Below are positions 665 through 59,436 of a stretch of DNA of 64,000 bases, piece after piece. Every line of letters begins with the position of its first letter. The stretch's first letter is position 1. The position numbers were made by a program, and so were the translations under genes. Origin of the DNA: Haplodiscus bocki. Lineage: Eukaryota. A model generated the notes under the pieces. It was given only the letters and a program-made list of their open reading frames with translations, made no database searches and had not been told where the DNA came from. Where the stretch lies: positions 63,426,001 to 63,490,000 of the forward strand of contig OZ296650.1 in assembly GCA_965655095.1 (NCBI GenBank), read 5' to 3'.

Positions 665-3018
665 TGTCGCTGGTGTACTAGGGGTATTATCAGTTGTTTA
701 CTATTGTTCTCGCTAGCTAACATTCTTTAGCGACGTGCGCGGCCATACGTTTGCGCTAACGTGTGAGAAAATCTCAGGAGCTTACACTGGTATTAGCTTT
801 GTAAACTTGTCTTACTAAACCGCGCGAACAAAGCTGCGTAAATTCTACTAGCAAGGATTTGGTGAGCACAGAAAGAGTAAAAGTGAAGAAGCAAATTATT
901 TGATGAATATACGGAAATGAGAATTTGGTGATGAAATGTAAATGTGCACAAGATAAGATGGGATTTTGGAATGATGAGTTTATTTCGGGCGAGATTCGAG
1001 AAATCCAATATAGTGAAAGTCAGCAGCAGTTCTTCAAAAAATTTATCAGCCAAATCTCTACATTTTTCTATCAACAATTAAATCCGTATTAACTGTAATA
1101 TACCTGAAAGCATCTGTAAATATCAATTGTAATATATCACAATCCTATTATCCCCGTGACAAAAGAAACATCACTACTGTATATTTTTCTTCCCATCATG
1201 AAGATATCAACAGTCAACAGAAAATCCGTCAGTATCGCAATTTTCGGAGTAATTATCAAAATATACAAACTATTCGAAAAATTTCTATGAAAAATTCGAA
1301 GTTTAAGGCATCGCAGCGTTTAAATAAACGCAGCACGTCAAATCATTCATTAAATTTAGTTTAAATTTGAATTGTTCGAATAAATGAAAAAACAGCAAGC
1401 AATGACGACTAATTTACAAATCATTCCAAAAAACTGGAAAAATTTATCCAATTTAAGAGCTGAGTTGAGGTAATTTTTTTGGCTTTTTTTTTACTTTTGG
1501 CTCGGACGAAAGATTACATTTGTTGTTTGTAGCTCGGCTTTGTTGCCTTCTTGCTTCTTTTTAGTTTTACATTTTTTATATGTAATCAATTTAGCTAAAC
1601 CTTTGGTATTATGCCATAAAAACAGTCAACCGAATCAATTTTCTTGAATCTCTTCAGTTCAGGCCCTGACATAAGTCAAACTGTGTTATTGAACGGGATA
1701 GCATCTTTTATCTAAGACTTTGGTAACATGCGTAAACACAGTCGACTAAGTCAAGTCTCTTAGGGTCCTCTTTCAGTCAATAGAATCTTTTGGTGAGCAA
1801 ATCAAGAGCGAGTAAATTGGTCCTGCAGATCAGATTTCGAGGCTAAGACAAGTTAGTTTTTGAATCAATTCGATGATGAGGAAATTGGTCTTAGAATAGT
1901 TTTGATGATGAAATTTTTGTTTTTTATGGAATTGAATGATGAAATTTTCGCTCCGAAATCATGATGAGGGTGAAGTGGACGAGAGTTTTGCCTCGGGGAA
2001 GTAGGCTGGGTAACTTTAGAGAGCGACTGAATATAATGAAAGTGTAAGGGGTATTTATACTCATTCATAGCGCCATCGGGTAATTATCCAATAGGAGAGC
2101 GCCGCAGATAGCAGTGTTTACTCTTGGATCATTTAGTGGGTATGAGGAGGCGAGGAATGGCTGTTTTTGAAGTTTTGCGGCTAAGTCAATATTCGACTTA
2201 GAAAACTTTCGATGGTGAGCGTTTTGCGACCCAGTCAAAATTTGACTTAGAGAAACTTCGATCACGGCGATTTTGCGGCTGAGTCTAAATTCGACTTGGA
2301 AAAAATTCGAAGAATGGGAGGGGCAAAGAGAAGAGGAAAGTTCGAAATTTTGAGAGTCGGAGACAGAAGAGGAAAGACGAGAGTAAGTTGTTGACGGTAA
2401 GCGAGTGAGTGAAATTATGATTTCTTTCATCGTGCCAAGTGACTCTAAAATGGCATCATGCTGATTTTTCATGACTCCAATAGAAAAACAGCGCATGTCA
2501 ATCATGTCAGAACAGCTGACGAATAAGCTGTTAGTGGGTTTTGGGCAAAATCGAAATTTTAATTTCTGTCTATTTTTGCTTAGTAATCAATTTTGGGAAT
2601 TCCAATCGAGTAATCTCCAAATCTCTTCATGTCAGCGTAAAGTCGGCAAATATTTATTCTCATTTATAATCTTCAGTTTTGCCGTTGCATAGTCTGTGTT
2701 TTCAGTTTTTTCATCTTTCGTATTTCCTGTTGCATCAGGGTCTCTTGTTTGAATTCAAATATTTGTTGCAACAGCTCCTAAACTCCTGCTTGGTTTGTCA
2801 ACTTTATATCCGTTGTAATCTTTACTAGCTCTCAAATCAAATTTAGATACCAAATAATCAGACTGCACTAATCATTTTCCGTATTTCTCTAATATCTGAT
2901 ATATTTTGGGCTTTTCATTTTGAGCCGAAACTTCTCCAGGTTAGTTTTGACTTTTCGTTAAATTTATATTACTAAATAACGCATTTTTTAACGTTTGAAC
3001 GTTAGTCGTAACGCGTTA
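665..3018 (-). mobile_element. Solo LTR (about 2.35 kb) of a family related to the 18.3-kb provirus
   Basis: On the minus strand it starts TAACGCGTTACGACTAACG (degenerate TGTCGCGTTAGACCTAACG) and ends ...GCGACA. Flanks are GACT/GACC. It shares the blocks CTTTGTTCGCGCGG and GGCCGCGCAC, the CCTATTGG plus GTATAAATACCC promoter and the CTAAGAGA...AGTCTTAGATAAAA motif with the other LTRs. Confidence 0.75.
2049..2096 (-). promoter_or_regulatory. Putative CCAAT plus TATA promoter of the minus-strand solo LTR
   Basis: The minus strand reads CCTATTGG...GTATAAATACCC, the same motif pair as at 10486-10553 in the plus-strand solo LTR. Confidence 0.55.
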
Positions 3019-9000: not shown

Positions 9001-10485
9001 AAATCTTTTTCCAAGTTTATAAAACCGAGTTAGTTTTCCTGACAAAACAAAATCCCTCAAATCACCAAACCCTGTTTTTCCTGGACCTCAAAACCGGAAA
9101 AAATGAAAATGAAGTTGTTTTGCGATTCCAATAGTCCATAAAAGCCAAAAAATTCAAATAGTCTTGAATTTTCTCGACTTTCAAAATCAATTTTTTGAAA
9201 ACTCTTGGTTGATTTCTTACATCAAGGTTTCACTCAATAGCATTCTCTTTTTGCAAGGTCATTCGACAAAAGTATATTCAGTTTTGAGCTATGCACCGGA
9301 ACGCTGTCGGCCATAAACGCTATAAATTATTGGAGTGGATACCAGCTGATTTCCATTGCTGCGTTCCGGATATATTGTACAAAAAACAAGCCGTTTGAAC
9401 TAACCACATTTTAAATCATGGCTTATTTCACTGTGGTATCGAAGCTAAGTACGAGGGAGAAAGGAGGAGACCAAAAAAACCTTATACAAACAAAGTATTT
9501 CTTGTTGCATTGAGAGTAATATGGTAGGCAACATAACGTCCACGCGGATGCTTTCTAATTATGTTCCAAACACGAAAATTTGATAATCATTGCTTTTAGT
9601 TCATTTTGAATTCGTTCAAAAAAACGATATTCCTTTATCAAAAACCTCTGATAAAAAGCGTTCTTTAGGAAGCTTGGAACAGTTTTTGTTAAAACTGGCT
9701 GTAGATTTTTTGTTCCTCTTTAGTAACAATTTTTCCATGAAACACCGGGTGGCTTGATTGCTGAAAAAATGGTCGTTTGTTTTGAGGGAGCTGGCGTCAA
9801 CCGATTTTCTGGTCGTTTTGTTCAAATTAGTTAGTTGTATTCGTTGAGACTTGTACCGCTCTAAAAGATTGCACTCCTCAGTCATCAGCTTCAAAAAAAG
9901 TCCAAAATTTGGAATTCAAATTAGTATCTCACAAAGTGCTTTACGTTTTGGCCTAATATCTGTTGAAAAAGATAATTACCAAGAAGAAACGGATTCCTAT
10001 CGCGTTATAAAGAACGCTCAAACCTTACAAAAGACGCTATTTTATAAAACAAAACTAAAGTGAAACTGAAACTAAATTCGAGAACTTTCGGTGATAAAAG
10101 AACACATCGAGAAATTGTAATTTTCAGATAAATACCCAAAGTGATTAGTGCAGTTTGCGTATTTGTTATTTAAACTTGACTTGCGAAACTGATAAGATAA
10201 TACAAGAAATGGAATTTACTTACCAAACCAACAGCTCGAAGTTTTGATAATAAATATTGACTTGGACTAATAGAAGCCCCTGGTGGAGCCGATTACCACA
10301 GGAACTGGGATGATAAAACCGGGACTTGGTGGCTACAAAATAAACATATACAAGTAATCGCCGCCATTATGGCGACAGGATACAAATTGACTGACAGCTT
10401 GAATTATTCGGTTCGAATTGCACAATTTCAAGATTTAAACTTACAAAAACAAAAACTCTACTTCGCCCAGCCTAGCGGGATTTTC

Positions 10486-10553
10486 CTATTGGCTACCTGA
10501 TGACATGCTCCGTCACGTGGCGTGGTCACTTGACCAAACGGGGTATAAATACC
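10486..10553 (+). promoter_or_regulatory. Putative LTR promoter: inverted CCAAT, E-box and TATA
   Basis: CCTATTGG (10486), CACGTG (10514) and GTATAAATACCC (10543). Confidence 0.55.
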
Positions 10554-10692
10554 CAGAGTTCAGCCATAAATTTCAGTTGCTCGCTCCCGCTCACTTGTCT
10601 AATTACTCAAGGCGAAACTCTTTTACAGTTAACTTCGAAGTTCTCTTCTTACTTTACCAATTCCTCTTCTCCTTTGGGGCGAGCGAAATTTT

Positions 10693-10905
10693 TCTAAGAC
10701 ATTTTCAAATTATATCTTTGCCAAATTTCAATTGCATCTCATCGAAATTATTCCAAGACATTTTCAAACTATGTCTTTGCCAAATTTCAATTGCATCTCA
10801 TCGAAATTAATCTAAGACTTTTTCAAATTATGTCCTTGCCAAATTTCAATCCCATTTCATCTAAATTATTCTAAAACGTTTTCAAATTGCGTCTTTGCCA
10901 AAATT
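10693..10905 (+). repeat. 59-bp tandem repeat, about 3.6 copies, inside the solo LTR
   Basis: Units start at 10693, 10752, 10811 and 10870 (TCTAAGACATTTTCAAATTATATCTTTGCCAAATTTCAATTGCATCTCATCGAAATTAT). Confidence 0.9.
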
Positions 10906-11375
10906 CCCTCGTCTTTACTTAGACAGTCCATACTCTTGCCACTGGGGTCTAAACACTGCCCACCAGCGCTAGCTTCGGTAATAGCGTGTGTGGATTCCGT
11001 GGTTGAACTTCGGTTCTGAAGCAAGAGTGAAACTTAAAGTGCACAATCCTCACGAGGTTCCCCAAAAAAGATATAACTGGCGCTACATAGACCAAATCTA
11101 ACCTCATCTGCTGGCGTGGTAATTTAGAATTCTTTCCAAGTTCCTAGTTACGGCCTAAATACGCAGAAACTGTCCCTTTTGCAATTCATTTTACACTTTT
11201 CCCATTCTCATCCTTAAAAACTATTCCCCACTGACCAGTTGGCCAATTTACGACTATCCAACGGAGCTTTACCCTGCAGTCAACCTACAACTATCCTCAC
11301 ACAACTTCGCTATTCGTAAGTTGTAATTTTGCTCTGATCTAGTAGAAGCATTCTCACTAGTCATTTCCCTTTAAA

Positions 11376-11995
11376 AATTCCTTCTCGATAAATCGCGAAA
11401 GAACTGCCGCGTCCGAATTAGAAGGGACTAAGAGAAAACCACCGGGTGCCGCTCACTATAAGCTGTACCTGAATAGTTGTTAAAAGCTAACAAGAACATG
11501 TAATTCCTTTCGACAAAACGCGAAGGAACTGACGCATTCCAGCTAAAAAAAAGGGCTGAGAAAAAATCACCGGTTTGCCGCTTACAGGGAGCTATACCTG
11601 AGCATTAGATAAAACCTAAAATACGTCAACCCCTCCAATAAATCCGGAGTTTTTTCTTCACGATTGGAAATACGGGGAATTCAAGATCTATTGCCCTGTT
11701 GTTTTTCTAAAGCAAGTTACTCGGGTTTTAAATAAAAGGCTAAAAGAATTATTTAAACCTAAAAGTAACATGCATGTAAATTCCTCGTCAGAGATTCACG
11801 CTTGACAAAAAGAGGACCTAAGAACTTTGACTCCGTCGACTGCTTTTATGGCATGTTACCAGAGTCTTAGATAAAATTTGATATCCCGTCCTGTAATTCC
11901 ACCCGATATAAATCTTGGTTCGCACCTCAATGGGATTTGAGAGACATGACTTGGTCAACTACTTTTATGGCATTTTACTAGAGTCCTAGATAAAA
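11376..11995 (+). ncRNA. Four diverged copies of a candidate structured RNA element in the LTR
   Basis: Copies lie at about 11376-11485, 11501-11614, 11778-11876 and 11894-11995. Pattern: AATTCC..stem..GGA-CTAAGAGA-hairpin-hairpin-TACCNGAGTCTTAGATAAAA. Stem sequences differ between copies but stay complementary. Confidence 0.45.
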
Positions 11996-13403
11996 TTGAA
12001 TCAAGTAAGACAAGTAGAACCAAAACTTAAATGAAAAAAAAGCAAAGTCTAGGCTAAAAAAAACGAATGTAATCATTCGTCTAAGCCAAAAAAAGCCAAT
12101 AAAATATTACCTCAATTTGGTACATAGGTTTGATACATCCTACCATTTCCTTTGGAAAGATTTGTAAATTGTTATTGATGACTACTTTTATTTATGTAAT
12201 CGATACAAACTTCGGATGAATTTCATCCTTATGAGTTTTAATATTAAATTTTGAAGTATTACGACAGTGGTTTATATAATTTCAAAATTTTATTAGATGG
12301 CGGAGCAAACACTGAAGCAGAATACGAGTGTGATGTGGGCTACTTCCACACCACCTACGAAAAAGACCCAGGGGTCTATCCTCTTTCCAGGAAACCCCCG
12401 TACTCCGCCAGTCCCTTTAGTTGGACTCGAAGTGTCGAAGGAGGCCAACTATCAAATCGCTCCGCCCTTTGTGTCTTTTGATATTTGGTCAATTTACAAC
12501 AGCCATTAGAGCTCTTGACTGCTCAATTACCTTTGTGTTGTAGCAGAGAATTCCCTTTTCCCAAATATTCCCATACATAGTCAGGAGGAAATCACGGAGA
12601 TTTGTTGTAATCTCTGTTTATTTAACTGAGAACCCAAAACTCATCAATAACCAAACCACTCATCATAAAGAAGTTGGTTACATTAGCCCATTCTTCAGGA
12701 GCCTCCACGTCTTTTCGGCAAAAAAGCCGCAAGAATTTTTTGGACCCATCATCCCCAGCCACCGGAGAAGGAGTCAGCTCGGGATCTGGCATATCTGGAT
12801 CCAGAGGAATTTCAACCCCGGTTCTCGTTTGATTTGGGACCTGATCATGTAACAGTGGAGATTGTGGCGAGATTCTGTTTGCCATTTTATAAATCGTTGT
12901 TAAAATGAATTTTAATATTAAATCATAAGTTCGAAGTTATCATAAAAATTGTCACTAGACTTAATTAATTTGGATTGCTCAAATCTTGCCCCAAATAATC
13001 TCACTGTTCCGAAATTTTAACTTATCTTGTGCACATTTACTTTTATTTAATCGACAGCCATTTCCGTAAATTCACCAAATATTTCATCTCCTATTTGTAC
13101 TCTTTCTTTGCTCATCAAGTCCTTTCCAGTAAAACTTACGCAACTTTGTCCGCGCGGATTAGCGAGGCAAATTTACAAAACGGATTTTAGTCTAAGCTTT
13201 TGAGACTTTCTTACACCATAACACAGACGTTTGGCCGCACACGCCGCCTAATAATATTAGCTAAAGCGAACATTAGTCAATATAATTGTTAAGTAGTCTA
13301 TCTGCACCCACTGTACGCGCGACATTACATACGAAGGAAGTTTTTATTATAATTTCAATGGCGACTTTCAACTTTCATATAATTCGGGGCTGATAATTTC
13401 ATC

Positions 13404-18625: not shown

Positions 18626-20506
18626 TGTCGCGTTAGACCTAACGCTAAACAGCCATAATAATAAACGTTAAACTGAAGCTATAACGCTAACCAGTAGCCA
18701 TAGTATTAAAGAGTGCTAGTCTTGAATTTACGTTAGCAATAACGCTAAACAGTCCATAACGCTAACTAGTGCAAGTTCTAAATTTAGCAATGACGTAAAA
18801 GAAGTAATAATAGCAACTTACCGTTTGAAGGGATAGTTGTTGGAGAGCGGTAACAAATTTGGAATTGCACATTTTGAAGCTTCAAAATTGCGCTGCCATG
18901 CTTCAAACTGATAAAACGAAGCCTTTCTATTTGTTACCCCCCGTTCTCGGAAGTTTGATTTTATTGCTTCCCGAACGGCACACCCTGCTCTTTTTGGTTC
19001 GAATTTTTGACACTTTTTGACAGATCACCATATTTGGTGCTCCTTGGCGCACGGCTTACCGTACTTGGTCATAGCCTTGAAAAGTACGAGGGCTCCGCCA
19101 TTTTGAACGCCGGCCGCCAAAACGAGAGCTCATAACTTTCCTTTTCGCCTACCGTTGACTACCACCTCCAAAACAGCGAAATTACTAAATTTCTTAATTT
19201 TCCCTACAAGAACCATCGAAAACTTCAGAAAATTATAACTTTCGAACAAAATTCCAATCTTCTTAAAAACTGGCCAAAACTTCTTCAAAGACGGAATAAT
19301 TCTACTATTCACAAAGAAACAGAAAACTACTATCCAAAGACCAAACAGCCCAACGGAAGGAATCGAAAGCAGCGTATTGGAAAATTCTAAAAGTATTGAA
19401 CAAAATGTTAGTATCTAAAATAACTAACCCCTGGCAGAGTACATCTCGCCAGGAAACTTAGTATTTAAGATCGGGCCTGTTAGCATATACTCTAAAGAGG
19501 AGCTAACGGATGACCACGAGCCTAAAAGGACGTGTGAGACTCACAGAGTTCCCGAACCATAAGAGAAATTGCTCGGTGGCTACTTCCGTTTGGGGTTGTG
19601 CCCTTTGTCGGCTGCCTCCATTAAAGTGAAATGATGCTGAGTCTTAGATAAAAACCAACACTAACCCAGACTTCGATCAGAAACAAACGTCAGAGGCACA
19701 TTGATTCTTACTCAATGTTTTAAATTCCTGACCCTAAGAGAAATCGCTCGGTTGCTACGCTGAAGCAGAGTTACCGTGTCATAGCTACTAACCTAACACC
19801 TCTGATCGAAGCTGAATTAATTTAGAGTAAAATTGACTTAGAGGATTAATTGTAAAATGAACTGTTAGAAAAGGCGGAAAAATTTATCTTCCGTCCTAAT
19901 GTAACTTTTAGCAGGTTGACGGTGCTCGACTACGACTCATCTCCTAAACAGGTGAGAAAAAGTATTATAACCAATGCTATTATAGTTTTACTGGTTTTAC
20001 ATCTTATTTTTGAGCGAATTAAAACGCGTGCAACAATATTCTTTTGAAATTTATCTAAAAATTTGGATTTATAATTCTGTCATAAAGTTGTCTGGGTATT
20101 GATAAATTCTGAGCAAATAATTTTGGATAATACAGTTGCTAACTTCTTTACTTTGAATGAAACTGGAATAGAGTGAAATTTGAACTAAATTCTTTATGCT
20201 AGAACTGTACCGTCACCTTTGTGCACTCCCTACCAAGTTTACCAGTATTGTATTTGAAGCCATAACTTTATTTCAATATTATAACTGTTAACTCTGAATA
20301 AATTCTCTGCAAATTCTTAAACCACTTCATAGCAATTCACTAAGTCCTTGCCAGCGAATTCACGCAATACTTTGTTCACGCGGGCCGGCAAGTCAATTTT
20401 GAGACTTAAGTTGTTCAAATAGCAACGGCCGCACACCAACAAGTGAAGGACTTTTGTCAACTTGGAAATTGAACTAAATAAATTTAAACTACTAGACCGC
20501 GCGACA
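18626..20506 (+). repeat. 5' LTR
   Basis: TG...CA ends; direct repeat of 35089-36969; TAACGCTAA repeats near the 5' end. Confidence 0.98.
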
Positions 20507-20509
20507 AAC

Positions 20510-20527
20510 TGGTGCGACCAGTGAGGC
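20510..20527 (+). promoter_or_regulatory. Primer binding site
   Basis: TGGTGCGACCAGTGAGG begins 3 nt after the LTR; TGG complements the tRNA CCA end. The TGGTGC-N5-GTGAGG pattern resembles animal tRNA-Ile(UAU) or elongator tRNA-Met 3' ends, but the tRNA is not assigned. Confidence 0.85.
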
Positions 20528-20551
20528 ACTTGTGTTTTTTGTGATGATGCT

Positions 20552-20737
20552 ATGAGTGAAGTCTACGAGTTTTTTATTTCTATTGTGCTACTCTCTCCAG
20601 GCCTCTTAATTTCAATTTTGGTCATTTTCTTAACTGTGAATTATATAGTCACTCTTGGATCTTTATTCTTGGTGCTAGTGAGATTGAATATCTTAAATCA
20701 ACACCAGATTTCTCCAAGTGACCACGTACGAATTTGA
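20552..20737 (+). CDS. Small hydrophobic leader ORF (61 aa, probable membrane protein)
   Basis: ATG-initiated, with a hydrophobic stretch of about 38 aa; first of a closely packed series of ORFs before gag. Confidence 0.5.
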   Translation: MSEVYEFFISIVLLSPGLLISILVIFLTVNYIVTLGSLFLVLVRLNILNQHQISPSDHVRI

Positions 20738-20752
20738 CTTGAGTCACCGTGG

Positions 20753-20884
20753 ATGAGACGTGACTTGATTGTGACTCTCTATTTTTTCTTTTTGGCGATA
20801 GTGGCACTTCTATTGACACCACCTTATCTTCTCGCTGTGATACGATTGGAACGAGTCATAATTGGACAGGACTGTGATTCCTGA
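20753..20884 (+). CDS. Small membrane peptide A (43 aa; not in the ORF track)
   Basis: Translates as MRRDLIVTLYFFFLAIVALLLTPPYLLAVIRLERVIIGQDCDS and is paralogous to 21104-21229. Confidence 0.65.
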   Translation: MRRDLIVTLYFFFLAIVALLLTPPYLLAVIRLERVIIGQDCDS

Positions 20885-21103
20885 TATTCGATGAACGACG
20901 ATCTACCTATCCTACTCATCTAACGAAGCGACTTCAACGCCCATCTATTTCACCTCTCATTTGCAAATTGGGACACTATTTTCTACAAAACTACGGATCG
21001 TTCTTCTTTGGGTAACGTACTATGAGATTGTTTCGGTAAGGTGGACTTCCTGAACTTTCAAAAATTCAATTATTTTTGTATCCTATTATTCCGATTCTTC
21101 TTA

Positions 21104-21229
21104 ATGAGACAGAATTTGATTTTAATCTTGTACTTCCTGTCTCTTGCAATTCTTTTTTTACTTTTGGGACCCGGATATCTTTTATATGTACTTCAACTAA
21201 TGCAAATCATTAAGGAACTCAACGATTAG
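21104..21229 (+). CDS. Small membrane peptide B (41 aa from the ATG)
   Basis: MRQNLILILYFLSLAILFLLLGPGYLLYVLQLMQIIKELND; more than half of the first 32 residues are identical to peptide A with no gaps. Confidence 0.65.
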   Translation: MRQNLILILYFLSLAILFLLLGPGYLLYVLQLMQIIKELND

Positions 21230-21235
21230 ATTTGA

Positions 21236-21595
21236 ATGCCACATCCAAGTGACCAAAATTCAGTTGTTTGGAATACCCTCGGTGACGACGGATTCGACGA
21301 AATACCACATTTCAACTGCCCTTGGACCATCACTACAAACCAGGAGAGTATTACAGTTAATATTATCTACTTAAAGTGGACCTTCAATTACGATTTTTGG
21401 ATTCGTGTGGAAATTCACCCTCAAGGAAATCCTACAGCTTTTCAATTATTGGATATAGACGAACTCCATCCATTGTTTAAATCTCTAGCAACGGCACTTC
21501 TGAACTACTACGAATTTCCAGAACCCCACTTAACTGAGTTCCAACTTCACGTATATGGCGAATTAATGGACCATTTGCTCTACAAAGTCGATTGA
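21236..21595 (+). CDS. Accessory protein of unknown function upstream of gag (119 aa)
   Basis: The ATG lies 6 nt after the previous stop and the stop lies 9 nt before the gag ATG. Globular composition, with weak similarity to 30656-30994. Confidence 0.7.
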   Translation: MPHPSDQNSVVWNTLGDDGFDEIPHFNCPWTITTNQESITVNIIYLKWTFNYDFWIRVEIHPQGNPTAFQLLDIDELHPLFKSLATALLNYYEFPEPHLTEFQLHVYGELMDHLLYKVD

Positions 21596-21604
21596 ATTAA
21601 AATT

Positions 21605-23053
21605 ATGGCTAATTCTCATCTCACATACCCCGACTTGGCCTTAGACAAGTTCTCTGGCACTGATCCCGACCAAGACGCAGAATCTTTCGTCCAGTTAATA
21701 GAAAGAAAAATTAACTTCGCATTAGGTGATGCACCTGCGGATCCGGACGATCTGGTTAGTTACACTTTCCGTGAAAAAGCACTTTTCTCCTCTCTACTGC
21801 GAGGGCCAGCAGCAGAGTGGTACGAAAATAACATTGAGAATGCCACCACTTGGGCAGACACACGAGAACAGTTCATAACGCGATTCTCTGATGGACGAAA
21901 CAAATTCCGACATAGAAAGGAAGTAGAGCACTGTGTACGAGGCGATGGAGAAGAAATCAGGAATTTCCTATATCGGATAAAGAAAATTGTTGACAAAGGA
22001 TGGCCCGACGATATGGAAGGCATCGTAGAAGCAGATAGAGCTGCAGAACGTGAGGCTCAAGGAAGACAAAGAAGACAACGATATATTGACTATACACTAC
22101 GAGGACTTCGTCCAAGATACTTACAACGAAAAGCTCAAGAGTATCTGATGGAACACCCGAACGCAACATGGAATGATTTCTCCACTAGAATCATTCAAAG
22201 AGACGTGAGTTATCAAGTTTCATCGAACTTCCTCAATGATGAGGAACAGACCAAGGTTCAACTAGCTTCGCTAGGACAAGAAATGAAGAATCTTCGTTCT
22301 CAACTACAGGAACATCAAGTTAGTGCACTAGAAAACCCACGTCAGCCCGATCCTAACCAAAAAGGCCGACAAAACGCTACGCGGTTTTGCAATTATTGCC
22401 GCTCCGACGGACACACTCCAAGTTGGTGTAGAAAGAAAATTCGAGATGAAGAAGTTAAGAGAATACAGGACGGGATGATGGCTGAAAAACGCGTAACGTT
22501 CACTAACGATTACAACAAACGCCGAGGACCTATTCACGGATCTGGACAGTTTACCTACAACAATTCTGAAAACAGACATCCAGCTGGACGGGACATAAAT
22601 GATACACAACAATCGACCTACGATGGGGCTACACAGTTCCACCCACGAAATAATTGGGGTAATCCTCCCAGATACAGCACATTTAACTCTGGTCGAGGAC
22701 GACAGTTCAATCGACACCAAAATCAATTTGTCAGCCGCAATGATAACAATGAATACAGGAACGGCTCTACCGGAGCCCCGTCGAGAGGAAACTGGCAGAA
22801 CATTGGGAGTAATCCACGTTCCCCTTCTAGTCCAAGACGAGACCCACAGCCGAGTCGACACTATCAACCCTCACGGTCTATTACACCTGATAATTCGGTA
22901 TTCCGACGATCCAACAGCCAAGAACCTGGCGGTTTTGTGCCGTACGAACAGCGGTTCCCTCGAAACAATGATCAGACTGGCTCTCACACAGTCCGATTCA
23001 CCACTACGGAACATTCAATCAATGTGTTATCCGACCTCTGCCCGTTAAACTGA
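21605..23053 (+). CDS. gag: Gag polyprotein (capsid, coiled coil, CCHC zinc knuckle, N/G/R/Q-rich tail)
   Basis: Retrotransposon-gag motifs FSG..D and LRGPAAEWY...W...REQFITRF; knuckle CNYCRSDGHTPSWC. Confidence 0.95.
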   Translation: MANSHLTYPDLALDKFSGTDPDQDAESFVQLIERKINFALGDAPADPDDLVSYTFREKALFSSLLRGPAAEWYENNIENATTWADTREQFITRFSDGRNKFRHRKEVEHCVRGDGEEIRNFLYRIKKIVDKGWPDDMEGIVEADRAAEREAQGRQRRQRYIDYTLRGLRPRYLQRKAQEYLMEHPNATWNDFSTRIIQRDVSYQVSSNFLNDEEQTKVQLASLGQEMKNLRSQLQEHQVSALENPRQPDPNQKGRQNATRFCNYCRSDGHTPSWCRKKIRDEEVKRIQDGMMAEKRVTFTNDYNKRRGPIHGSGQFTYNNSENRHPAGRDINDTQQSTYDGATQFHPRNNWGNPPRYSTFNSGRGRQFNRHQNQFVSRNDNNEYRNGSTGAPSRGNWQNIGSNPRSPSSPRRDPQPSRHYQPSRSITPDNSVFRRSNSQEPGGFVPYEQRFPRNNDQTGSHTVRFTTTEHSINVLSDLCPLN

Positions 23054-23105
23054 TGAGGTCTCCGAAGTCTGACTCCAATCGCTCACGGAGTTCAAGACTT
23101 AGTCT
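23044..23105 (+). promoter_or_regulatory. Predicted -1 ribosomal frameshift signal (G_TTA_AAC plus downstream structure)
   Basis: The slippery heptamer sits directly before the gag TGA and pol is in the -1 frame. Downstream pairings CTCCG/CGGAG and AAGTCT/AGACTT are possible. Confidence 0.75.
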
Positions 23106-23934
23106 TAACATTTTCTATTTCGCCACCGAAGACGCTCAAAAAGATAGTGGACTGGAAATCGAATTTATGTTAGATACAGGAGCTTCCTGTTCAATCATCA
23201 ATTATCGGACTTTTTGGGAGATCTCGCAATTCCACCATCCTATAAAAGTTCATAGGAGTAATAAAGTAACAAAGACCTAATCAGGCCAGGTCGTACCGAT
23301 GATCGGTTACGCCAGCATAGATTTCAGTTACGACCCTAATGGTGAATATTCTTTTCCTTTAACTGTCTGGATTACGGAAATGAAAACTCAAGACCTCCTT
23401 GGGATGGACTTCTGTCAGAGTCAGACTTCAGGAATCCACTTTGATTTACCTGGCATTGAGTTATGGCAGCCTCCAAAAACCTTCTGTTATGGAAGTCTTC
23501 ACCAGAATAAAACATTTCCTTACGTTTCTCGAATTCTAACGGTTCGATTACCTTACACTATGTACGTTGACGCTAAAAGCGCCAGATGTTGGAAGTACTC
23601 ACCTGAGGACCCAAAATCTCTCTTCCCGCCTGGATCAACTTTTCAACCCAACAGGGAAGCTGTGTCCACAGGTCTTAGCTTTGTTAACATCATTTGCACT
23701 CAGCCCGAACCGACTCTCCCATTACTGATAGAAAATAACAAAAACCATCAAATAACGCTTCCTAAAGAACGGATTGGATTTTCGTGTCTCGATGTAGCTG
23801 ACAAGGAGGAACCAAAGTACCAGATCAGGAACCCCTATGAATTGACAAATACCATAACCGCTACAAATGATAAGTACAACGACTGCTTTCTTTTACACTC
23901 AACCATTCCCGCACAATCTCCAGATGACTGTCTA

Positions 23935-24360
23935 CAAAAAATTCACGGTACCGAGGATTCAATACTACAACAACCTTACTCGATTGGACATTGTATCTCA
24001 GCAGACGCTAAAATGAGCAAAAGATTCGCCGACTTTCTTTCCCAACGAATTCCTGGACTTCGAGATACGTGCAGACGTACAAAATTATTGATAGGACAAA
24101 TTTTCCCATTCTGGGACCAAACTGGTAATCGACATATCTATAATCTAGTGACAAAAACTAAATCTTCTGAAAAACCTAACCTAGCTACTTTATCTTCAAC
24201 TCTGGAAGAAATGAAGTCTCATGCACAACTGTATGGAATCTCTACCATCGCAATTCGTAAAATTGGATGCGGACTTGATCAAATGAACTGGCAAGAGGTT
24301 GTAAAACTACTCAGAGATAATTTTGCCTACTCAAATATCCGAATAGTAGTTTACACCCTA
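23935..24360 (+). other. TARG1/OARD1-like macrodomain embedded in Pol
   Basis: SIGHCISAD..M, IYNLVTK....KP, LEEMKSH, IGCGLDQMNW..V and IVVYTL mirror OARD1 motifs (SLAHCISED, IYYLITK, IGCGLDRLQW, ITVYTL). Confidence 0.9.
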
Positions 24361-27300
24361 GAAGAAAACGGAGTACATGCTTTGTCCTCAGAAGGAGACG
24401 CCGACTTCTATGCGGAAGATGAAATTGAAAGATACAGCGAAGAGTTCTACTTGAATGATAAAGATTTGGAAACGGACTTCACTAGAGATGCTAAATCCTG
24501 TCAACCGACATGTGATGAACAATTTCCAACCTTCCGGGAAAAAGACTACAATATTCAGCTGATTGAGCATTATTTACAATACCAGCCAAAAGAACTAGTG
24601 CAGTACGTGAAAGAATTTGACTTCCAGTTCTCTGATATTACCGACGAGGAGATGACTCTCCTTATCGACATGTTAATCGATTCCAGAGATGTCTACTCGC
24701 AACACAAATTCGCTGTTGGTAAGACCCGTCAAAAGTTTCACGTAACGTTAAAACCGAATGTGGAATTGAAAAGACAGAGACCTAGCAAAGTACCATTGCA
24801 TTTGAAGGAAAAATTGGAGAAACTTCTAACCCAACTTAAAGACGCAGACATTATTCGAGAAATGGGAGACGACGACGAAATGGGATCACCTTTTGTTAAC
24901 CCCATCATCCTGATGCCTAAAAGTAACTATGTGAAACTAGTCATAGACGCTCGTTTCCTAAACTCTGTAACGGATCTCACTAATTACTCATGGCCTCTGG
25001 AACCTGTACAAATGATAATGACCCGAGTCAACGGAAAAATCTTTTCTGTTAGCGATTTATCCTGTGCATACCATCAAGTACCACTGAAACCCGAAACTCA
25101 GAAGCTGACAAGCTTTATCATTGGTGGTAGACAGTACACGTACACCAGAGGATTCTATGGACTTTGCGGGTTACCTACTTTTTTTAGTCGACTAATGACA
25201 ATTCATTTTGAACCGCTGATTAAAAAGAAGCAAGCAATAACCTACATAGACGATACAATAATGCAATCACAAAACAAAGGTGAAATGTTCTCGATCATCC
25301 ATGAGTACCATAATTTACTCAGGAAAGCTGGCTTGAAAGCCGCCCCAGAAAAGACTTTCTTTTTCCTCAAAAAGGTGAAATTTTTGGGACACGTTATTTC
25401 GTCTGAAGGAATACAGCCAATTGCAAAACGGGTAAAGGATCTGAAGAGTCTTAAATCACCTGAATCTAAACGAGACGTCATGAGAATTTTGGGAAGTCTG
25501 GGATTCTACGGCTGCTACATTAAAAATCTTCATGTGGATAGTAAACCCTTCTACGACCTCATTAGAGATTCTACTTCATTCCATTGGACTGAAGAGCATG
25601 AGAAGATCTTCCAAATGATAAAGGACAGGATCAGCGAAGATACAATCCTCGCCATCCCCTCTACTGAGTATCCATTTCATATCCACGTTGATTCGTCCAA
25701 CGTGGGAACCGGATGTGTTTTGATACAACAATTCCCGGAAGGGAAGCGGATTATCTCTTTCAATTCTTGTATTTTCGATAAAGCAGAACAGAAGATGTCT
25801 ACTCTCCACAAGGAATTGTGTGGAATCGTTTCAGCGTTACAAACTTACGAGCATTACATTATTGGATCTCCTTTTCCAATATACTTGTATTGTGACCATA
25901 AACCAATTCTTTATTTATGGGGGCGCAAGGGACAGTTATCTCATCGCTTCTTTCGATATCAGGTAATAATAACGAAGTTCCAGAATTTGAAGATCATCTG
26001 GACGCCAGGATCTAACCTGGCTTTCCCTGATATGCTTAGCCGGAACGTGACCATTGATGAATACCAACATCACCAGTTACAACACAAGAAGCTACCACGA
26101 GATATTCAGTATTTTGATGAACATGGACAACAAATTACGTACAAAATTAACCACGATGATACTTCAGCTGAAAAGTGTAACGATTTCTACCCCATCAATT
26201 GCCAACAAGGCAAGGACCAGAAGATACTCCGATTACATAATGATGGTAAAAATTTTTCTCTTAACAGCATCAGTACTGAATTTGCCACTTCCACAGCACA
26301 ATTAGCTGCGGATTGTTTCCGAATGGGACGAACTATCAACCAGTTCCGACGGTTATGCCGACCAGGTTCTCCAGTATCTTTATCATCATCTGAAAGCTCC
26401 ACTGGAACCTACAGTTCTATCAGTGTAATTGAGATGGACGGAACCGAGGAAACTGAACCTTCTTCATATGCTGAACGCGTAGTTCACGAAAATTGTGATA
26501 GTGAGGAAGATGAAGATGACTACGTTTATGAGATCAACGCCAACGATCACTACCGCATAGGCAAGGCTCGAGCAGCTCATGAATCACTGATTAGTGACCC
26601 TGACACTCTCTTAGTAAAAAAGACCCTATCAGCTACGGCTGCTCCTCATTTGAAAACCTGGGACTTGATCACTAAACTGGATGACGTTGCAAAAGTCGTC
26701 GATCTTGATATTCCTACCATCTTACAAGAACAACTCAAAGACCCACTACTGAGTATTGTGCGCTCCTGGATCGAAAGAAATCTCTCACCCGACCTCAAAG
26801 CTCCAGAGATTCGACAGTCCAAAGTTCTTCTCAGATACGGTCAAGAGCTAGATCGACTACTCATAGAAGACCACGGACAACTCCTGTGTTATGACGAACC
26901 ATCTGACTCCTTAGAATAAAGGAACTTACGGATCTGTTTGCCATTATCTCTCTTCTTAGCCTGTTGCCGAATGGGACACTATAACGAGCTAGGTGGACAC
27001 ATGGGCGCTTCCAAGACGTACACTAACGCTAAATGATTTTACTATTGGCCTGGGATGTTCGACTGGATCTGCGCTCTCACAGCTGATTGTCTTGCGTGTC
27101 AGAATAATAAACCTAAACCTAAACATCTTAAAGAAGTACCACTGGAAGAATGGCAAGGTGATACTGCACCATTTAGTGCAATACATATTGACCATAAAGG
27201 ACCTCTCCATGCACCGAGCAACTGGAATACTCACTGTCTTTTGATAGTGGACTCTTTTTCGCGTTTCTTAATGGTCTATCCTGTTACCAATACTGGAGCA

Positions 27301-28872
27301 CAAGCTACAATCGCTGCAGTTGAGAAATGGATACTTCCTTTTGGGATTCCCCAGTCAATAATACATGATAGAGGAACAGCTTTCCTTAACACAGACTTTG
27401 TTAATTGGACTAAAGAATTAGGAATTACCCTGCGACCACGCACAGCCCACTCACCGTGGACAAACGGCAAAGTAGAAACTCAAAACCAGCATATCGCACG
27501 TTATTGGAGAAGCTTTCTGAACAATGCTGGTACTAATTGGGCTCCCCTCGCACCAAAGTTTGCCTTCGCGCATAATACCAGCGTTAATTACACTACTGGA
27601 AAAACTCCGTACGAAATCGTCTTTGGTACCAAACCACAGATTCCTATGTCTGTCAAAATGGTACTTTATCGTAACAAACATTAATTATGTTGTTCAGAAT
27701 TCTGCATCGACTTACCTCCTCATACTCATGACGAGAACTCTACGAAGAATGAGCTACTCCAGAAACTACTTCGACCACAACTTTCTCAGGCTCTGTTGGA
27801 TCGAGAGCGAGACTTTAAACGAATTTACTCTTCTACTTTTGAACGATGCAGAGAACAAACAGCGCGCTCCCACGCATACACAAACAGATTTAAACTAGGA
27901 CACCATCTAGACGTTGGCCAGAAAGTCCTTTACGAAAACCACCGGCAAGACCTGTCAAAAAGTCAAAAGCTACAACAACGACGATTGGGCCCTTTCACTG
28001 TTACCAAACGAGTAACTAGCACTACTTATCAAATTCAAGACGACAAAGACCCATCCATTACCAAAACAGTACATCGTAACCATTTGGTTGAATATTATCC
28101 TAAAGAAGAATCACTTCCAGCTATGATCGACGAATACGTACCACACGACCAGCGACATGATGATTTCTATGAACGGTTCTTGGAACAACGAATTGGGAAA
28201 TTGAATAGCTTTACAACGCCACCCGCCGAGGACACCATTCCATTTCCAATTAGACTGGTACCCACGGCTCCGGCAATCGCTTCACACAAACGTGATAGCC
28301 TTACTAGCAGTGATTCGGGAGTTGGCTCACCTCAGGTTTTTTCGCCGACCCAACCCATAACTCCTGAACAACAACCACCGCATTCACAGGAGACGGAAAA
28401 TGAACAGCCATTAACCTCGGCTTCTACTAGACCATTCACTCCGATTCAACAATTTTTGTGGAACAGCCGAAAGTCCAAAGCGAGAGAGCCCAAATATTTC
28501 AGACCTCAGCCACATGACCCTAATCCTCAATCGGCCCTACGCACACTCACCCGTCAGGGCTATAAACTTTGATCAGCAACAATTCGTTGTTGCTCAACAC
28601 TCGCTCACATTCTTGTTCTGAGCAATTCATTACTTATTACTCGTGATACTTCGGACCAGATGCCTAAATGTCATAAATTTTACCCCAATTGCCGGTGGAT
28701 GGTTACCCACTGTTGGCCTAGCCTGACACTTGACAAAGTACTGTTAACAAAAGTTTATTGGAGCTATTCAACACACATCGTCCGTGTGTGCTTTACACCT
28801 CTAATAGAACCTACACTTAAACAGGATCTAAAGCGCAAGCGTAATGTCCAAATAACTTTCAACTCTCCTGCC

Positions 28873-29034
28873 ATGGCAAGCCTTTATGAACTTCTTTGCT
28901 ACCATTCTCTTGAAAATTTCGATCCAATTATGGACGAATTCCTTACTTTTATTCATTCTTCACGATCTTCACTTTCTTCAGCAATTTCCACCGCCCTACC
29001 CGAACCAGCTGATGATCATCTCAACGATTCCTAA
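28873..29034 (+). CDS. Possible small accessory ORF (53 aa)
   Basis: Strong Kozak context GCCATGG; product MASLYELLCYHSLENFDPIMDEF...; no homology recognised. Confidence 0.3.
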   Translation: MASLYELLCYHSLENFDPIMDEFLTFIHSSRSSLSSAISTALPEPADDHLNDS

Positions 29035-29170
29035 ATTTTCCAATATAACTATCTCACAAAAATTGGAATGTGCAATCCCAAAACAACTGAACACTAACTG
29101 CGCAGAGGATTAGTATGGACATACAGTGACTAAACCGACGGGGGAGGATAACCCCGCCGGCAGGAGCCGC

Positions 29171-29635
29171 TCAGTCCAGGCACAGGAAGCCCCCGTCTTC
29201 CGCCAAGGACTTAACCCGCGCCCGGAAGACGATTTGGGGCCACGAGTCCATCGCCTGAGCGAACTCCCCCCTCTGCTCCTCCACGAGGCCGAGCCACCCG
29301 GCGAGGATTGCCCGCAACTCAAACAGCAGAACCTCGCCGGACTCGGACAGGATCATAGCCTCCCAGTCCTCTCCGTAATACCGGACCAGGAAGCTTCTGA
29401 AACCTGCGAACACCGGGGCTTCTTGCGTTGGCGCTTCATCGTCGCCCCAGTGAAACCTCATGAAGGCCCTCCAACCTTCAAGCCAGAATAAGGCAGGCTC
29501 CCCAAATACGTATAGGGGCCCGCCAAAGGAATCTTCCGCCGTGGCGTGGAAGAGTGGGAGTTCCGGGAGAGGGTCAATCCCGTCCCACCCAACCACCTCC
29601 ACGACGACTCCAGGGGGTGATGGAGGATCTGCCAT
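29171..29635 (-). CDS. Antisense accessory ORF (154 aa, acidic, Trp-rich)
   Basis: Occupies a distinct GC-rich island. The ATG (GGATGG) is preceded by an acceptor-like TTGTTACAG, and the composition is protein-like. Confidence 0.6.
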   Translation of the reverse strand: MADPPSPPGVVVEVVGWDGIDPLPELPLFHATAEDSFGGPLYVFGEPALFWLEGWRAFMRFHWGDDEAPTQEAPVFAGFRSFLVRYYGEDWEAMILSESGEVLLFELRAILAGWLGLVEEQRGEFAQAMDSWPQIVFRARVKSLAEDGGFLCLD

Positions 29636-30184
29636 CCTGTAACAACAATGAAATGTAACAACAATCGGACATTAATAACAACTGGAATGAAACCCACCAA
29701 ATCCCTAAAAACGAGACTACTCTTCACCGGAATTTTCCACCCAATTTTTATTCTGAACCCGTCAATTTATCGCGTTCTCCTCAACTTCTGTTACTCCCTA
29801 CCCGCCAATTTTTTCGCTATTTTTCCCCGGAAGGCCCTGCTGTGACAAAGCACAGCAGAGCGGAAGAAAAACAAAAAAAGGAAGAAATGAAGAAAAATAT
29901 TGTTGCACGATTCCGTTTATTAAATTAGCACGATTCCGCTTACACTTAAATCGTCTAAATTAAATGAATAAAATTATTTACTCTGAACTTAATTTCAATG
30001 AATCTTTTAAATTATTAATTAGTTATCTTACGAAATGTTTAAAACGTGGTTCTAATTTGAAGCATCGTTCTCAGATGTGATATGCACTCAGAACGGTACG
30101 AAGCAGCTCAACGCACCTCATATCCGATCCAGCAACGGACAGCAAACACCTAACACTCAACCAATTGGGGGATCTATTGAACAG

Positions 30185-30406
30185 ATGACAATCATATTCT
30201 TCAGAATCAACGGAGACACTTTCATCCTACGGAGGATAACCTACGATTCAACTACAGAAAGCTTTGATGTAAAAACACAAGCTATCGAAACCGGAGTACA
30301 GACAATTTTCAACTGCCCTAAAACTTCCGAACATTATACTTTTGTAGAAGGTCTTTACAAATACCCTCCACCAGCAGAAATAAAAAGCAAAAAAAGAATC
30401 ATTTAA
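30185..30406 (+). CDS. Accessory protein, tandem paralog 1 (73 aa from the ATG)
   Basis: Shares IN.D...L...TY.S.T..F.V.T and F.CP..SEHY.F...LY..PPP..IKS with 30424-30648. Confidence 0.8.
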   Translation: MTIIFFRINGDTFILRRITYDSTTESFDVKTQAIETGVQTIFNCPKTSEHYTFVEGLYKYPPPAEIKSKKRII

Positions 30407-30423
30407 ACGATTACAAAAGTCAA

Positions 30424-30648
30424 ATGAGCAAATTCTTTCTCGAAATTAATAACGACTCTTATCTTCTCGAACACTTAACTTATATTTCTGAAACTAAAGT
30501 ATTTACAGTATTTACAGAAAGAGTCGGTGATTGGACAAAAATTAAATTCAAGTGCCCCGAAGAATCAGAGCACTATTCTTTCATTAGACACCTTTACTTC
30601 AATCCGCCACCAGAAAACATAAAGAGTATAAACAAAATTTTCGAGTAA
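30424..30648 (+). CDS. Accessory protein, tandem paralog 2 (74 aa)
   Basis: Ungapped protein-level similarity to 30185-30406 despite diverged DNA. Confidence 0.8.
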   Translation: MSKFFLEINNDSYLLEHLTYISETKVFTVFTERVGDWTKIKFKCPEESEHYSFIRHLYFNPPPENIKSINKIFE

Positions 30649-30655
30649 AATCTTC

Positions 30656-30994
30656 ATGACTTACGAGCTTAACCTTAAGTGTATTTGGCAACATCCTACG
30701 ACTGGAAACCATCTGGAGATAACAAAAATTGTTTGGGGAGAAGTTGAAAAGCCAATAAAAATAACAGTCAAAAGTCTACGACAAGCTCAGCTTGGAACGT
30801 GGACAATACATATCAAACCAGACACAGAAGACCTGATCAACCTCCTGTCGTCTCTGATAGTTTTCACCAAGTTCCCCTTCTTTGCTCAAGCTCACCCATT
30901 ACAAAAACATCTGGTGAAAGAGCTCATTCTCCTTTGTCAGTCACTAACTCACGACGGACAATCCAGCTCAAAGCGTGCTAAGACTAGTTATTAG
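30656..30994 (+). CDS. Accessory protein of unknown function (112 aa)
   Basis: The ATG lies 7 nt after the previous stop. Possible distant paralog of 21236-21595, with a basic C-terminus (KRAK). Confidence 0.7.
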   Translation: MTYELNLKCIWQHPTTGNHLEITKIVWGEVEKPIKITVKSLRQAQLGTWTIHIKPDTEDLINLLSSLIVFTKFPFFAQAHPLQKHLVKELILLCQSLTHDGQSSSKRAKTSY

Positions 30995-31020
30995 AGCTTC
31001 AACTCAGGCTAGAAAACCCC

Positions 31021-31125
31021 GATTGGCACTTTTTTGACGATCCGGTTTTAGTCCGGCGTCCCTTTTTGACGATACTGGGTTCGGTCCAGCGTCCTTTATA
31101 AAAATCTCGACGTCGTTTTTCAGTA
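31021..31125 (+). promoter_or_regulatory. Candidate internal promoter upstream of env
   Basis: ATTGG (31022), two direct repeats of about 32 bp (TTTTTGACGAT...GTCCRGCGTCC), TATAAAA (31097) and Inr-like TCAGT (31120). Confidence 0.5.
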
Positions 31126-31224
31126 GTGGAGCAACTACTATGAAATTTTTGCTCCCGCTTTGTCTTAGTGCCCACAAAGCTGCCGGTTTGATATTACGGC
31201 TTATTTTTTAGCTACCCTTTACAA

Positions 31225-33399: not shown

Positions 33400-33449
33400 A
33401 AATTTCTTTTAACGTAATACGTTACTAATTCTTAGTGTTTAGATTTTCA

Positions 33450-34058
33450 ATGCAGAGCGACGACTCATTGCCTATCCTAACTGATCTGGATTTCATATTC
33501 CCAACCTTAACACCATCAGCATTGGAACAACCAGCCGAGCCAGTTGTACCTCTTCGCTCACCTCCTTCGATAAGTATTCCATCAAACCCTGCTTCACCCG
33601 ACGAGCAATCAGACACAGCTTCAACGACGCGGGGACTATCTTCGGTTACGGGGTATTCAATTGCTACCTTCACTACTGACCAGCAACCAATTCCTACTAT
33701 TGCATCTTCTGTTGGAAACGTTAAGTCCAAGAACTCATCCTCTCGCCGTGCACGCACACGCGCACGACCTAAACGAGTCCGAAAATTGCGACGACACACC
33801 AGCAAAGACTTCCAAAAAGGAGACAGACTAACACTTGCTCGCCAACACAAAAGGGAAAAATTCGCCCAACTCGCGAGGGCCGTGAAGAAACCTCGTTTCA
33901 ACCCCCATTTGTGTTATAGCTTGAAACCAGAATATTCCTCCTGGAAGTTAATTTTTTGGGACAGCCAGCAACAGGAGTTCACCATACAGAACACACTTCT
34001 TCCCACTCAGAGGCTTGTTGTTCCTCTGTGCGCTATTACAGCTAATCCGCAGTATTGA
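33450..34058 (+). CDS. Accessory protein with a Ser/Pro/Thr-rich N-terminus and an Arg-rich motif (202 aa from the ATG)
   Basis: Long open frame between env and TRAF; basic tract RRARTRARPKRVRKLRR. Confidence 0.7.
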   Translation: MQSDDSLPILTDLDFIFPTLTPSALEQPAEPVVPLRSPPSISIPSNPASPDEQSDTASTTRGLSSVTGYSIATFTTDQQPIPTIASSVGNVKSKNSSSRRARTRARPKRVRKLRRHTSKDFQKGDRLTLARQHKREKFAQLARAVKKPRFNPHLCYSLKPEYSSWKLIFWDSQQQEFTIQNTLLPTQRLVVPLCAITANPQY

Positions 34059-34120
34059 TTTAAATGTTAAATTACTCTTCTTGAAATTACTTAAAAGTTC
34101 AACTTAAAAACTTGTGAATA

Positions 34121-35047: not shown

Positions 35048-35076
35048 AGAACCCCAATCAATTTCAACACCTTGTC

Positions 35077-35087
35077 AGTGGGGTGAG
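35077..35087 (+). promoter_or_regulatory. Polypurine tract
   Basis: AGTGGGGTGAG lies 1 nt before the 3' LTR. Confidence 0.7.
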
Positions 35088-35088
35088 T

Positions 35089-59010: not shown

Positions 59011-59436
59011 TTTATTGTGTCGGCGCGGGAATAAGCACTTTGATATCCATTTCCGACTGATCAGACCCGTATATTTTCCGTCGAAAGATGGAAAAGACGC
59101 GGTCTGTAAAGGAAGAAATGGAGGGAAAGTTGTTTATTTCCCGCCAGAGTCGGCATATTTCCTTTGTAATTATTATAATTAAAGTACTTTTCCCTACTTT
59201 GTACCTTTACTTGGCGTGTAAACAATTTTGTTTCCCGCCAAGGAAAAGGTATAAATAGAAGAAATGAAATTACTAAAGGAGGAGATCCTTAATATCACTT
59301 TGATTATCAGTTGACTGTACTGATTGCGACTAGTTGTTTATTTTAAAGAATAACATTTTTGTTATAATGTCAAGTTTATTAACAAATACAAAATCATCCA
59401 GTCTTCATAACTGAGTAGCATTTTCCCTTCAAATAG

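Follow-up and report, generated by a model that had tools for sequence, protein, structure and literature searches.

Cis-acting RNA signals for packaging and export have been well mapped in vertebrate retroviruses and in yeast Ty elements, but barely in the env-bearing Ty3/gypsy elements of invertebrates. In retroviral packaging signals (the G//AGG loop of HIV-1 SL1; the ssPurines of MMTV and MPMV), stem-loops near the 5' end carry exposed one-sided purines, some of them beside palindromes, at several sites per RNA, and the exposed purine bulges are given as Gag/NC sites, also in spliced RNA (PMC13736810). The RU5 PCE of SNV, MPMV and HTLV-1, associated with RNA helicase A, consists of redundant stem-loops in the transcribed LTR (PMC2657110), whereas the CTE of MPMV/SRV-1, associated with NXF1, is a long stem with repeated internal loops (PMC4330393, PMC7551171). 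Within Ty3/gypsy, unspliced RNA of the complex env-type LTR retrotransposon Cer1 of C. elegans is exported with the help of the accessory protein CERV, and the available text of that report describes no RNA element for this export (PMC10309623).

The array of predicted hairpins analysed here resembles the packaging signals in its stem-loops with exposed one-sided purines at several sites, but it is located 5' of the PBS, within the LTR, consists of 2-7 two-hairpin units in tandem, belongs to a Ty3/gypsy clade and has no sequence relation to those signals. Like the RU5 PCE, it would offer redundant stem-loops within an LTR that is probably transcribed, its hairpins lying downstream of promoter-like modules; the PCE is 5'-terminal, whereas some 400-1400 nt separate the inferred start sites from the beginning of the array, which is built of a defined repeated unit. 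With the CTE it shares repeated internal loops and the letters CTAAGA, yet its bulges are one-sided instead of two-sided loops, its units are tandem instead of two-fold symmetric, and it lies in the LTR and not in a 3' UTR; the CTE loop AAGACA occurs in 4 of 489 copies with an opposite strand that is not CTE-like, and the array was not assigned to this class. With Cer1 it shares a complex env-type carrier, an accessory protein and a likely need for the export of unspliced RNA. The array appears to be a hitherto undescribed RNA motif whose kind of function would be a known one, found so far in one clade in one genome, a reach that limits its general interest; a search of the openly accessible literature found no published description of it. 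The short covariation-supported unit and its natural variants in copy number and pairing make the binding partner and its avidity testable on RNAs of 60-120 nt.

Arrays and their carrier elements

The 64,000-nucleotide stretch analysed (the window) sits in a 1.5-Gb eukaryote assembly and contains three array-bearing elements:

18626..36969, plus strand: Ty3/gypsy provirus with 1881-bp LTRs 98.8% alike and a CTAT target duplication
9998..13324, plus strand: 3.3-kb solo LTR of family A, carrier of the array, with termini TATCGCG..CGCGACA
665..3018, minus strand: solo LTR of family B

The provirus codes for gag, a pol with a Macro-like insert, RT-RNase H, integrase, a Monjiviricetes-type fusion env and a MATH ORF, the pol region being split into several broken frames. 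Its LTRs, target duplication, PBS, gag, order of RT-RNase H and integrase, and env are those of an env-bearing Ty3/gypsy LTR retrotransposon, and its RT falls in a large clade without named close relatives (named matches about 30% identical). The Macro-domain match within pol (23299-26919, plus) is weak, and the MATH/TRAF-domain ORF (34121-35047, plus) is a captured one lying 3' of env. The family A solo LTR has a 4-bp target duplication with one mismatch, and in its relatives the LTRs enclose a gag-only interior. The family B solo LTR of the window lacks about 430 nt of array present in relatives. Elsewhere in the window, another LTR element begins at 59018-61080 (plus), where its gag is of the DUF1759 (BEL/Pao) type and a coding repeat of 42 bp is present, and a MITE-like element at 13412-14537 has long inverted arms made of 25-26 bp repeats.

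The initial annotation had reported a unit present four times in the family A LTR, once in the family B LTR and twice in each provirus LTR. The four copies in family A were recovered (11428-11485, 11556-11614, 11818-11876 and 11937-11995), but a fifth unit at 11630-11737 had been overlooked, giving five units within 11378-11995. Similarly, the family B copy was found at 1706-1763 together with an overlooked second one at 1590-1699, while the provirus copies were confirmed at 19559-19653 and 19734-19788, with those of the 3' LTR at +16463. The units and the hairpins resembling them are the following:

11378..11485, plus strand: unit 1, with hairpin 1 at 11378-11427 and hairpin 2 plus tail at 11428-11485
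11504..11614, plus strand: unit 2, with hairpin 1 at 11504-11555 and hairpin 2 at 11556-11614
11630..11737, plus strand: unit 3, of the AGT/ACT form, with AATAAA in hairpin 1
11782..11876, plus strand: unit 4, the best preserved, in which GGT pairs with the ACC of TACC
11883..11995, plus strand: unit 5
1706..1818, minus strand: unit of the family B LTR, with hairpin 2 at 1706-1763
1590..1699, minus strand: second unit of the family B LTR
19559..19653, plus strand: provirus unit with a 58-nt apical insert (3' LTR copy at 36022-36116)
19734..19788, plus strand: second provirus unit (3' LTR copy at 36197-36251)
12049..12085 (approximate ends), plus strand: short look-alike hairpin 3' of the array, with a YTAR stem, a 5x1 A-rich loop and a 7-bp stem
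19865..19899, plus strand: look-alike hairpin of the provirus LTR, recognised by inspection, the family fold being different (3' copy at 36328-36362)

The fold of the look-alike hairpin was seen in the family alignments of A, B, C and the provirus sister family. Repetition of the unit exceeds chance. DNA searches with the three window arrays gave 1343, 1232 and 1260 candidates, that is, more than 1,000 per family when families are counted by DNA-search candidates, and from each candidate set 40 were scored and 30 fetched; once families C, D and H had been added, the collection comprised 489 distinct copies belonging to 20 unit types. A covariance model made from 15 hairpin copies, run on the window and 99 of 100 sampled 10-kb stretches, produced 18 matches at E<=5 in 1,054,000 bases, every one of them in an LTR array, and missed unit 1 and the second provirus unit of the window. 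A sequence-blind descriptor search was dropped, as it did not separate real DNA (23 matches) from shuffled DNA (26 matches). The LTRs had also been described as otherwise poorly alignable, which holds for the provirus LTR, aligning to other LTRs only near its own 3' end, but not for the solo LTRs of families A and B, which align at 69-75% over several segments.

In both solo LTRs, gag-bearing relatives and the location 3' of TATAAATA (10544; minus 2059) agree with the sense orientation downstream of a TATA box proposed in the annotation. The promoter-like module of family A is:

10544..10580, plus strand: TATA box and initiator-like TCAGT, inferred start site

Here TCAGT was assigned by its likeness to the initiator consensus. 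Promoter-like modules, generally of the TATA/initiator kind, precede the array in every long-LTR family, some LTRs holding several such modules; the provirus LTR has no TATA box and its start site is a guess. Tandem repeats of 59 bp and shorter follow the promoter-like modules (10684-10906, plus; 2140-2320, minus), vary in copy number among relatives and form many CTAAG..CTTAG inverted pairs, and one LTR family (L291:3000-4100) carries a succession of TATA/initiator modules with a separate tandem repeat after every module.

Sense-oriented arrays of 2-7 units were found in the gag-only family A, in families B, C, D, F-J and K and in the provirus families, whose RTs, where present, are 76-100% identical. 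No array was found in the short-LTR relatives E, K1, K2 and K5, nor in the single metagenome relative with an LTR among four such loci. Viral contigs contained no relatives, and the more distant RT relatives P0041, P0032 and P0014 have no close copy in this genome. A proposal that the units are amplified in non-autonomous elements was rejected, families B and D carrying pol and env together with 4-5 units.

Fold of the unit

Each unit is predicted to consist of two adjacent bulged hairpins and an A-rich tail. Hairpin 1 has a C-G-rich base, a 3' A-rich bulge of 3-7 nt, a stem and a 5' A-rich bulge of 5-6 nt; this geometry stays constant while the sequence turns over, with nearly all pairs Watson-Crick and the A-rich bulges one-sided. 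The annotation had mentioned another stem often preceding the unit; such a stem exists, but it corresponds to hairpin 1 and is a constant part and not an occasional one. Hairpin 2 has a 5' bulge of 7-8 nt, a 7-bp helix ending in RGT/ACY with at most one bulged base, a variable apex and the A-rich tail. The near-invariant residues of the unit are TAAG, GT/AC and TAR.

The claim of a conserved, covarying, RNA-like cis element in these LTRs is supported by covariation in the helix of hairpin 2 and by a pair swap in a sister family. With the commonest pairs of the 20 types, 136 of 140 cells of the 7-bp helix were canonical, compared with a shuffled mean of 114.2 that reached this value in 0 of 20,000 shuffles, and both sides changed in 6 of 7 columns; since the types are related and a bulge position was chosen manually for each of them, such shuffle counts are not probabilities; subsets of 4 types gave 0.035 and 0.0008. 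When the long hairpin was modelled on a 15-row alignment, two-sided change was detected in 9 of 18 pairs, with a covariation score of 0.315 (0 of 500 shuffles). The swap relied on an A found at a helix position where the provirus family has G, which predicts a T at the partner across the 58-nt insert: the predicted change from G-C to A-T was present in 29 of 30 loci of the provirus sister family and in 1 of 30 of the provirus family. Units 2 and 3 of the sister family also have complete 7-bp helices with further pair types.

In contrast, the three-way junction proposed in the initial annotation did not survive, since the covarying helix is another one and gives a long bulged hairpin, and neither P2 nor P1 exceeded shuffles. 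In the 15-row alignment the junction model had two-sided change in 3 of 13 pairs, none of them in P2, and a score of 0.213 (74 of 500 shuffles). P2 was canonical in 66 of 80 cells compared with 65.0 in shuffles (0.37), did not exceed a median ensemble probability of 0.011 in any of the 20 types and was never recovered in consensus folds of single types, although with a free choice of two registers per type it also beat all shuffles; the 6-bp closing stem P1 reached 99 of 120 compared with 98.4 (0.44). The TACC formerly read as a linker is the 3' strand of the helix, pairing with the GGT placed inside P2, and in the alignment of unit types GGT becomes AGT exactly where TACC becomes TACT.

Consensus folding of single types recovered both hairpins in most of them, the fold of the insert-bearing provirus type being different from the two-hairpin form. 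For the core helix the median ensemble probability reached 0.6 in only 8 of 20 types, chiefly the well-preserved ones. The basal TA/TA pairs are invariant, do not covary, are thermodynamically weak and stay at or below 0.01 in all types, and may therefore be sequence determinants and not a stem. Among copies, helix columns diverge by 6.8% and bulge columns by 11.6%, and variants common to at least 3 copies kept pairing 13 times and broke it 13 times. Complementarity between loops, between loop and tail, or with upstream sequence was not above that of shuffled partners in any of 8 comparisons across 19 types.

Evidence on the folding strand was mixed and a sense fold is only partly supported. 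For hairpin 2 the plus strand gives the better fold in 16 of 21 types (G-U 25 vs. 13), for hairpin 1 the minus strand in 14 of 18 (G-U 23 vs. 4). Among single copies, the plus strand has the greater stability in only 7 of 20 types (mean z -0.95 vs. -1.04), and the mismatches flanking the helices show no strand bias (25 A-C vs. 20 G-T beside Watson-Crick helices). For the whole array (11370-12100), z was -2.8 on plus and -1.7 on minus, with 20 shuffles each. A search for RNA counterparts listed none, and four runs that were examined proved to be contigs extending into the unique flank and gave no ends. The bulges being A-rich on the plus strand, and the structured RNA next door being clearly a plus-strand one, the balance appears to tip towards the sense RNA.

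Rfam 15, whose search had been suggested for the unit, gave no match to units at E<=5 in the window or at E<=10 in 5 related loci, a negative result that covers hammerhead, twister, pistol, hatchet, HDV-like, hairpin, xrRNA and H/ACA families. Apparent resemblances to the hairpin ribozyme, hammerhead, twister, H/ACA, K-turn and Y-RNA did not hold up on visual inspection, and a Pol III microRNA cassette was discarded for the T-runs inside the unit on both strands.

Element U and accessory proteins

The structured RNA next to the array, here named element U, lies in family A at:

10947..11170, plus strand: element U, a structured RNA of about 225 nt with two UUCG-type hairpins and a long-range pseudoknot

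Its predicted fold has 45 pairs, with 92.6% of cells paired in 13 copies, a swap between UUCG and GCAA loops, many G-U pairs on plus and a long-range pseudoknot of 10 bp. It is 81% conserved between families with otherwise unalignable LTRs (L251:6885-7095, L261:4170-4408) and has no Rfam match. In family E, element U is located in the leader, between PBS and gag, whereas in A, C and F-J it is in the LTR just upstream of the array; it is absent from B, D and the provirus family. By its predicted fold it would be a second unclassified RNA motif beside the array, and as a candidate ribozyme or IRES it may be the more promising of the two. In the array-less family E (L251:7100-7450), an 80-bp tandem repeat with GGAG..CTCC hairpins occupies the equivalent place after element U.

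The provirus also encodes small paralogous proteins (21236-21595, 28660-29034 and 30656-30994, all plus) with a C-x-W motif, modelled as a beta-meander and two helices. The family is acidic or neutral. Its AlphaFold model (pLDDT 77) gave a best VIA Z of 5.0, with PH-like rows at about 4, and no Foldseek match at E<=0.001, only PUR/Whirly-type rows reaching E 0.17-0.5; no Pfam match, PDB sequence match or usable Atlas match was obtained.

On the opposite strand, an ORF at 12620-12885 (minus) occupies the 3' part of LTR A, a donor-like site in antisense is conserved close to the end of the LTR (13134-13142, minus), and antisense ORFs of 157-207 aa lie between integrase and env (L257:5141-5614, L264:4578-5183, L280:1700-2323).

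Possible roles of the array

Ribozymes occur in the LTRs of other retroelements, and the compact fixed geometry of the unit, its near-invariant TAAG, GT/AC and TAR residues and its tandem copies could be those of a new self-cleaving ribozyme or of an exonuclease-blocking RNA. We consider this highly improbable. The structural basis of both readings, put forward in the annotation, disappeared because there is no junction and no pseudoknot signal and the loops vary freely, even taking the 58-nt insert; neither the Rfam result nor the complementarity comparisons favour them, the latter giving no sign of the pseudoknot ring round the 5' end of an xrRNA in the 8 comparisons across 19 types, and a leader cut at several places would leave no intact genomic RNA. 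Control of 3'-end formation or stability, with the array in R just upstream of the cleavage site and AATAAA/ATAAAA exposed or hidden differently in each LTR, is also quite unlikely, although some of its features have a precedent in foamy virus, where a donor upstream of the poly(A) signal acts together with RNA structure (PMC3694450). In families A, B, C, H and P the sequence turns from A-rich to T-rich 100-200 nt 3' of the array, one unit of A, B, C and H has AATAAA partly buried in its hairpin 1, and all 8 families have a donor-like GT(A/G/T)AGT 90-180 nt before the array; yet comparison of the family LTRs found no AATAAA or other poly(A) hexamer at a constant position 3' of the array, the donor-like hexamers have poor exon-side context (those of family B being inside a hairpin), and one poly(A) site needs no five-fold repetition.

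A role without sense RNA, in which the hairpins act on antisense RNA, on minus single-stranded DNA during reverse transcription, or as protein-binding inverted repeats in DNA whose arms are held complementary by template switching, has somewhat more in its favour but is still unlikely. It would account for the near-pure Watson-Crick pairing of hairpin 1 and its preference for minus, for the neutral look of the shared variants and for the recurrence of CTAAG..CTTAG inverted pairs near the start site, and the antisense ORFs and donor-like site would suit it. However, hairpin 2 favours plus, pairing is kept across the 58-nt insert, and fixed-length one-sided bulges, which palindrome correction would erase, outlast the turnover of the sequence. 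A DNA element built on a GATA site, envisaged in the annotation, finds no conserved AGATAA: only 8 of 20 types have the motif in 49% or more of their copies, while 9 of 20 have it in no more than 5%, and membership of GATA-site enhancers was rejected. The same sense RNA array could instead be bound by a host export or translation factor, or by a Rev-like accessory protein, for the export of unspliced RNA and ribosome loading. Doubtful as it is when taken singly, such control in the manner of PCE, CTE or CERV is nearly as likely as packaging. The acceptor-like TTTTTTAG just upstream of env makes a splicing and export problem likely, and the array would match the description of the PCE (PMC2657110), Cer1 offers a Ty3/gypsy precedent of protein-dependent export (PMC10309623) and CTAAGA is common to the unit and a half-CTE primer (PMC4330393). 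In addition, the small accessory protein family accompanies the array in 13 elements, and 7 elements without an array lack it, but this co-occurrence concerns one clade and a profile built from that clade; moreover, these proteins are not basic (4 K+R and 17 D+E in the leader ORF), and the scarcity of the AAGACA loop speaks against a CTE.

Tentatively, we favour the array as a multivalent protein landing pad on the sense transcript that would let Gag select full-length RNA for packaging. The array is very probably transcribed, probably folds as sense RNA and may well bind a protein on the genomic RNA, and the chance that this protein is Gag and not a host export factor seems slightly better than even. 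Each bulge would be one protein binding site and the number of units (2-7) would tune avidity, which would explain why whole units are gained and lost by recombination. A hairpin geometry that stays fixed from repeat to repeat, while the loops vary, inserts are tolerated and the number of copies changes, suits a multivalent binding platform better than a catalyst. On a wider and rather speculative view, which we hold to be improbable, an invertebrate retrovirus-like clade would have rebuilt its LTR into a modular RNA control platform, with the array read by an element-encoded protein beside a pseudoknotted RNA of about 225 nt (possibly a new ribozyme or ribosome-entry fold) and with modules gained, lost and moved between leader and LTR independently.

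Against packaging, active short-LTR relatives have no array and the autonomous-type families B and D hold as many units as the gag-only A. Regarding splicing, a donor-like hexamer precedes the array in 8 of 8 families, while the best donor of the provirus (19949) is downstream of it; because the array is upstream of both this donor and the PBS, spliced RNAs may carry it. Palindromes in the bulges, retention in a gag-only element and the relocation of element U point towards packaging. With element U moved to just upstream of the array in A, C and F-J, the LTR segment appears to have absorbed leader functions. The gag-only element of the family A type keeps five units. Purine-rich bulges are predicted to be exposed in 5' stem-loops, as in packaging signals: 87 of 137 bulge bases are purines and nearly all bulges open with G, those of hairpin 1 being A-rich. 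Self-complementary hexamers occur in the bulge, and not in the apical loop, of 5 of the 20 types, the other 15 having no palindrome: AGATCT (15 of 29, 20 of 33 and 6 of 21 copies), AAGCTT (23 of 30) and GGGCCC (21 of 28).
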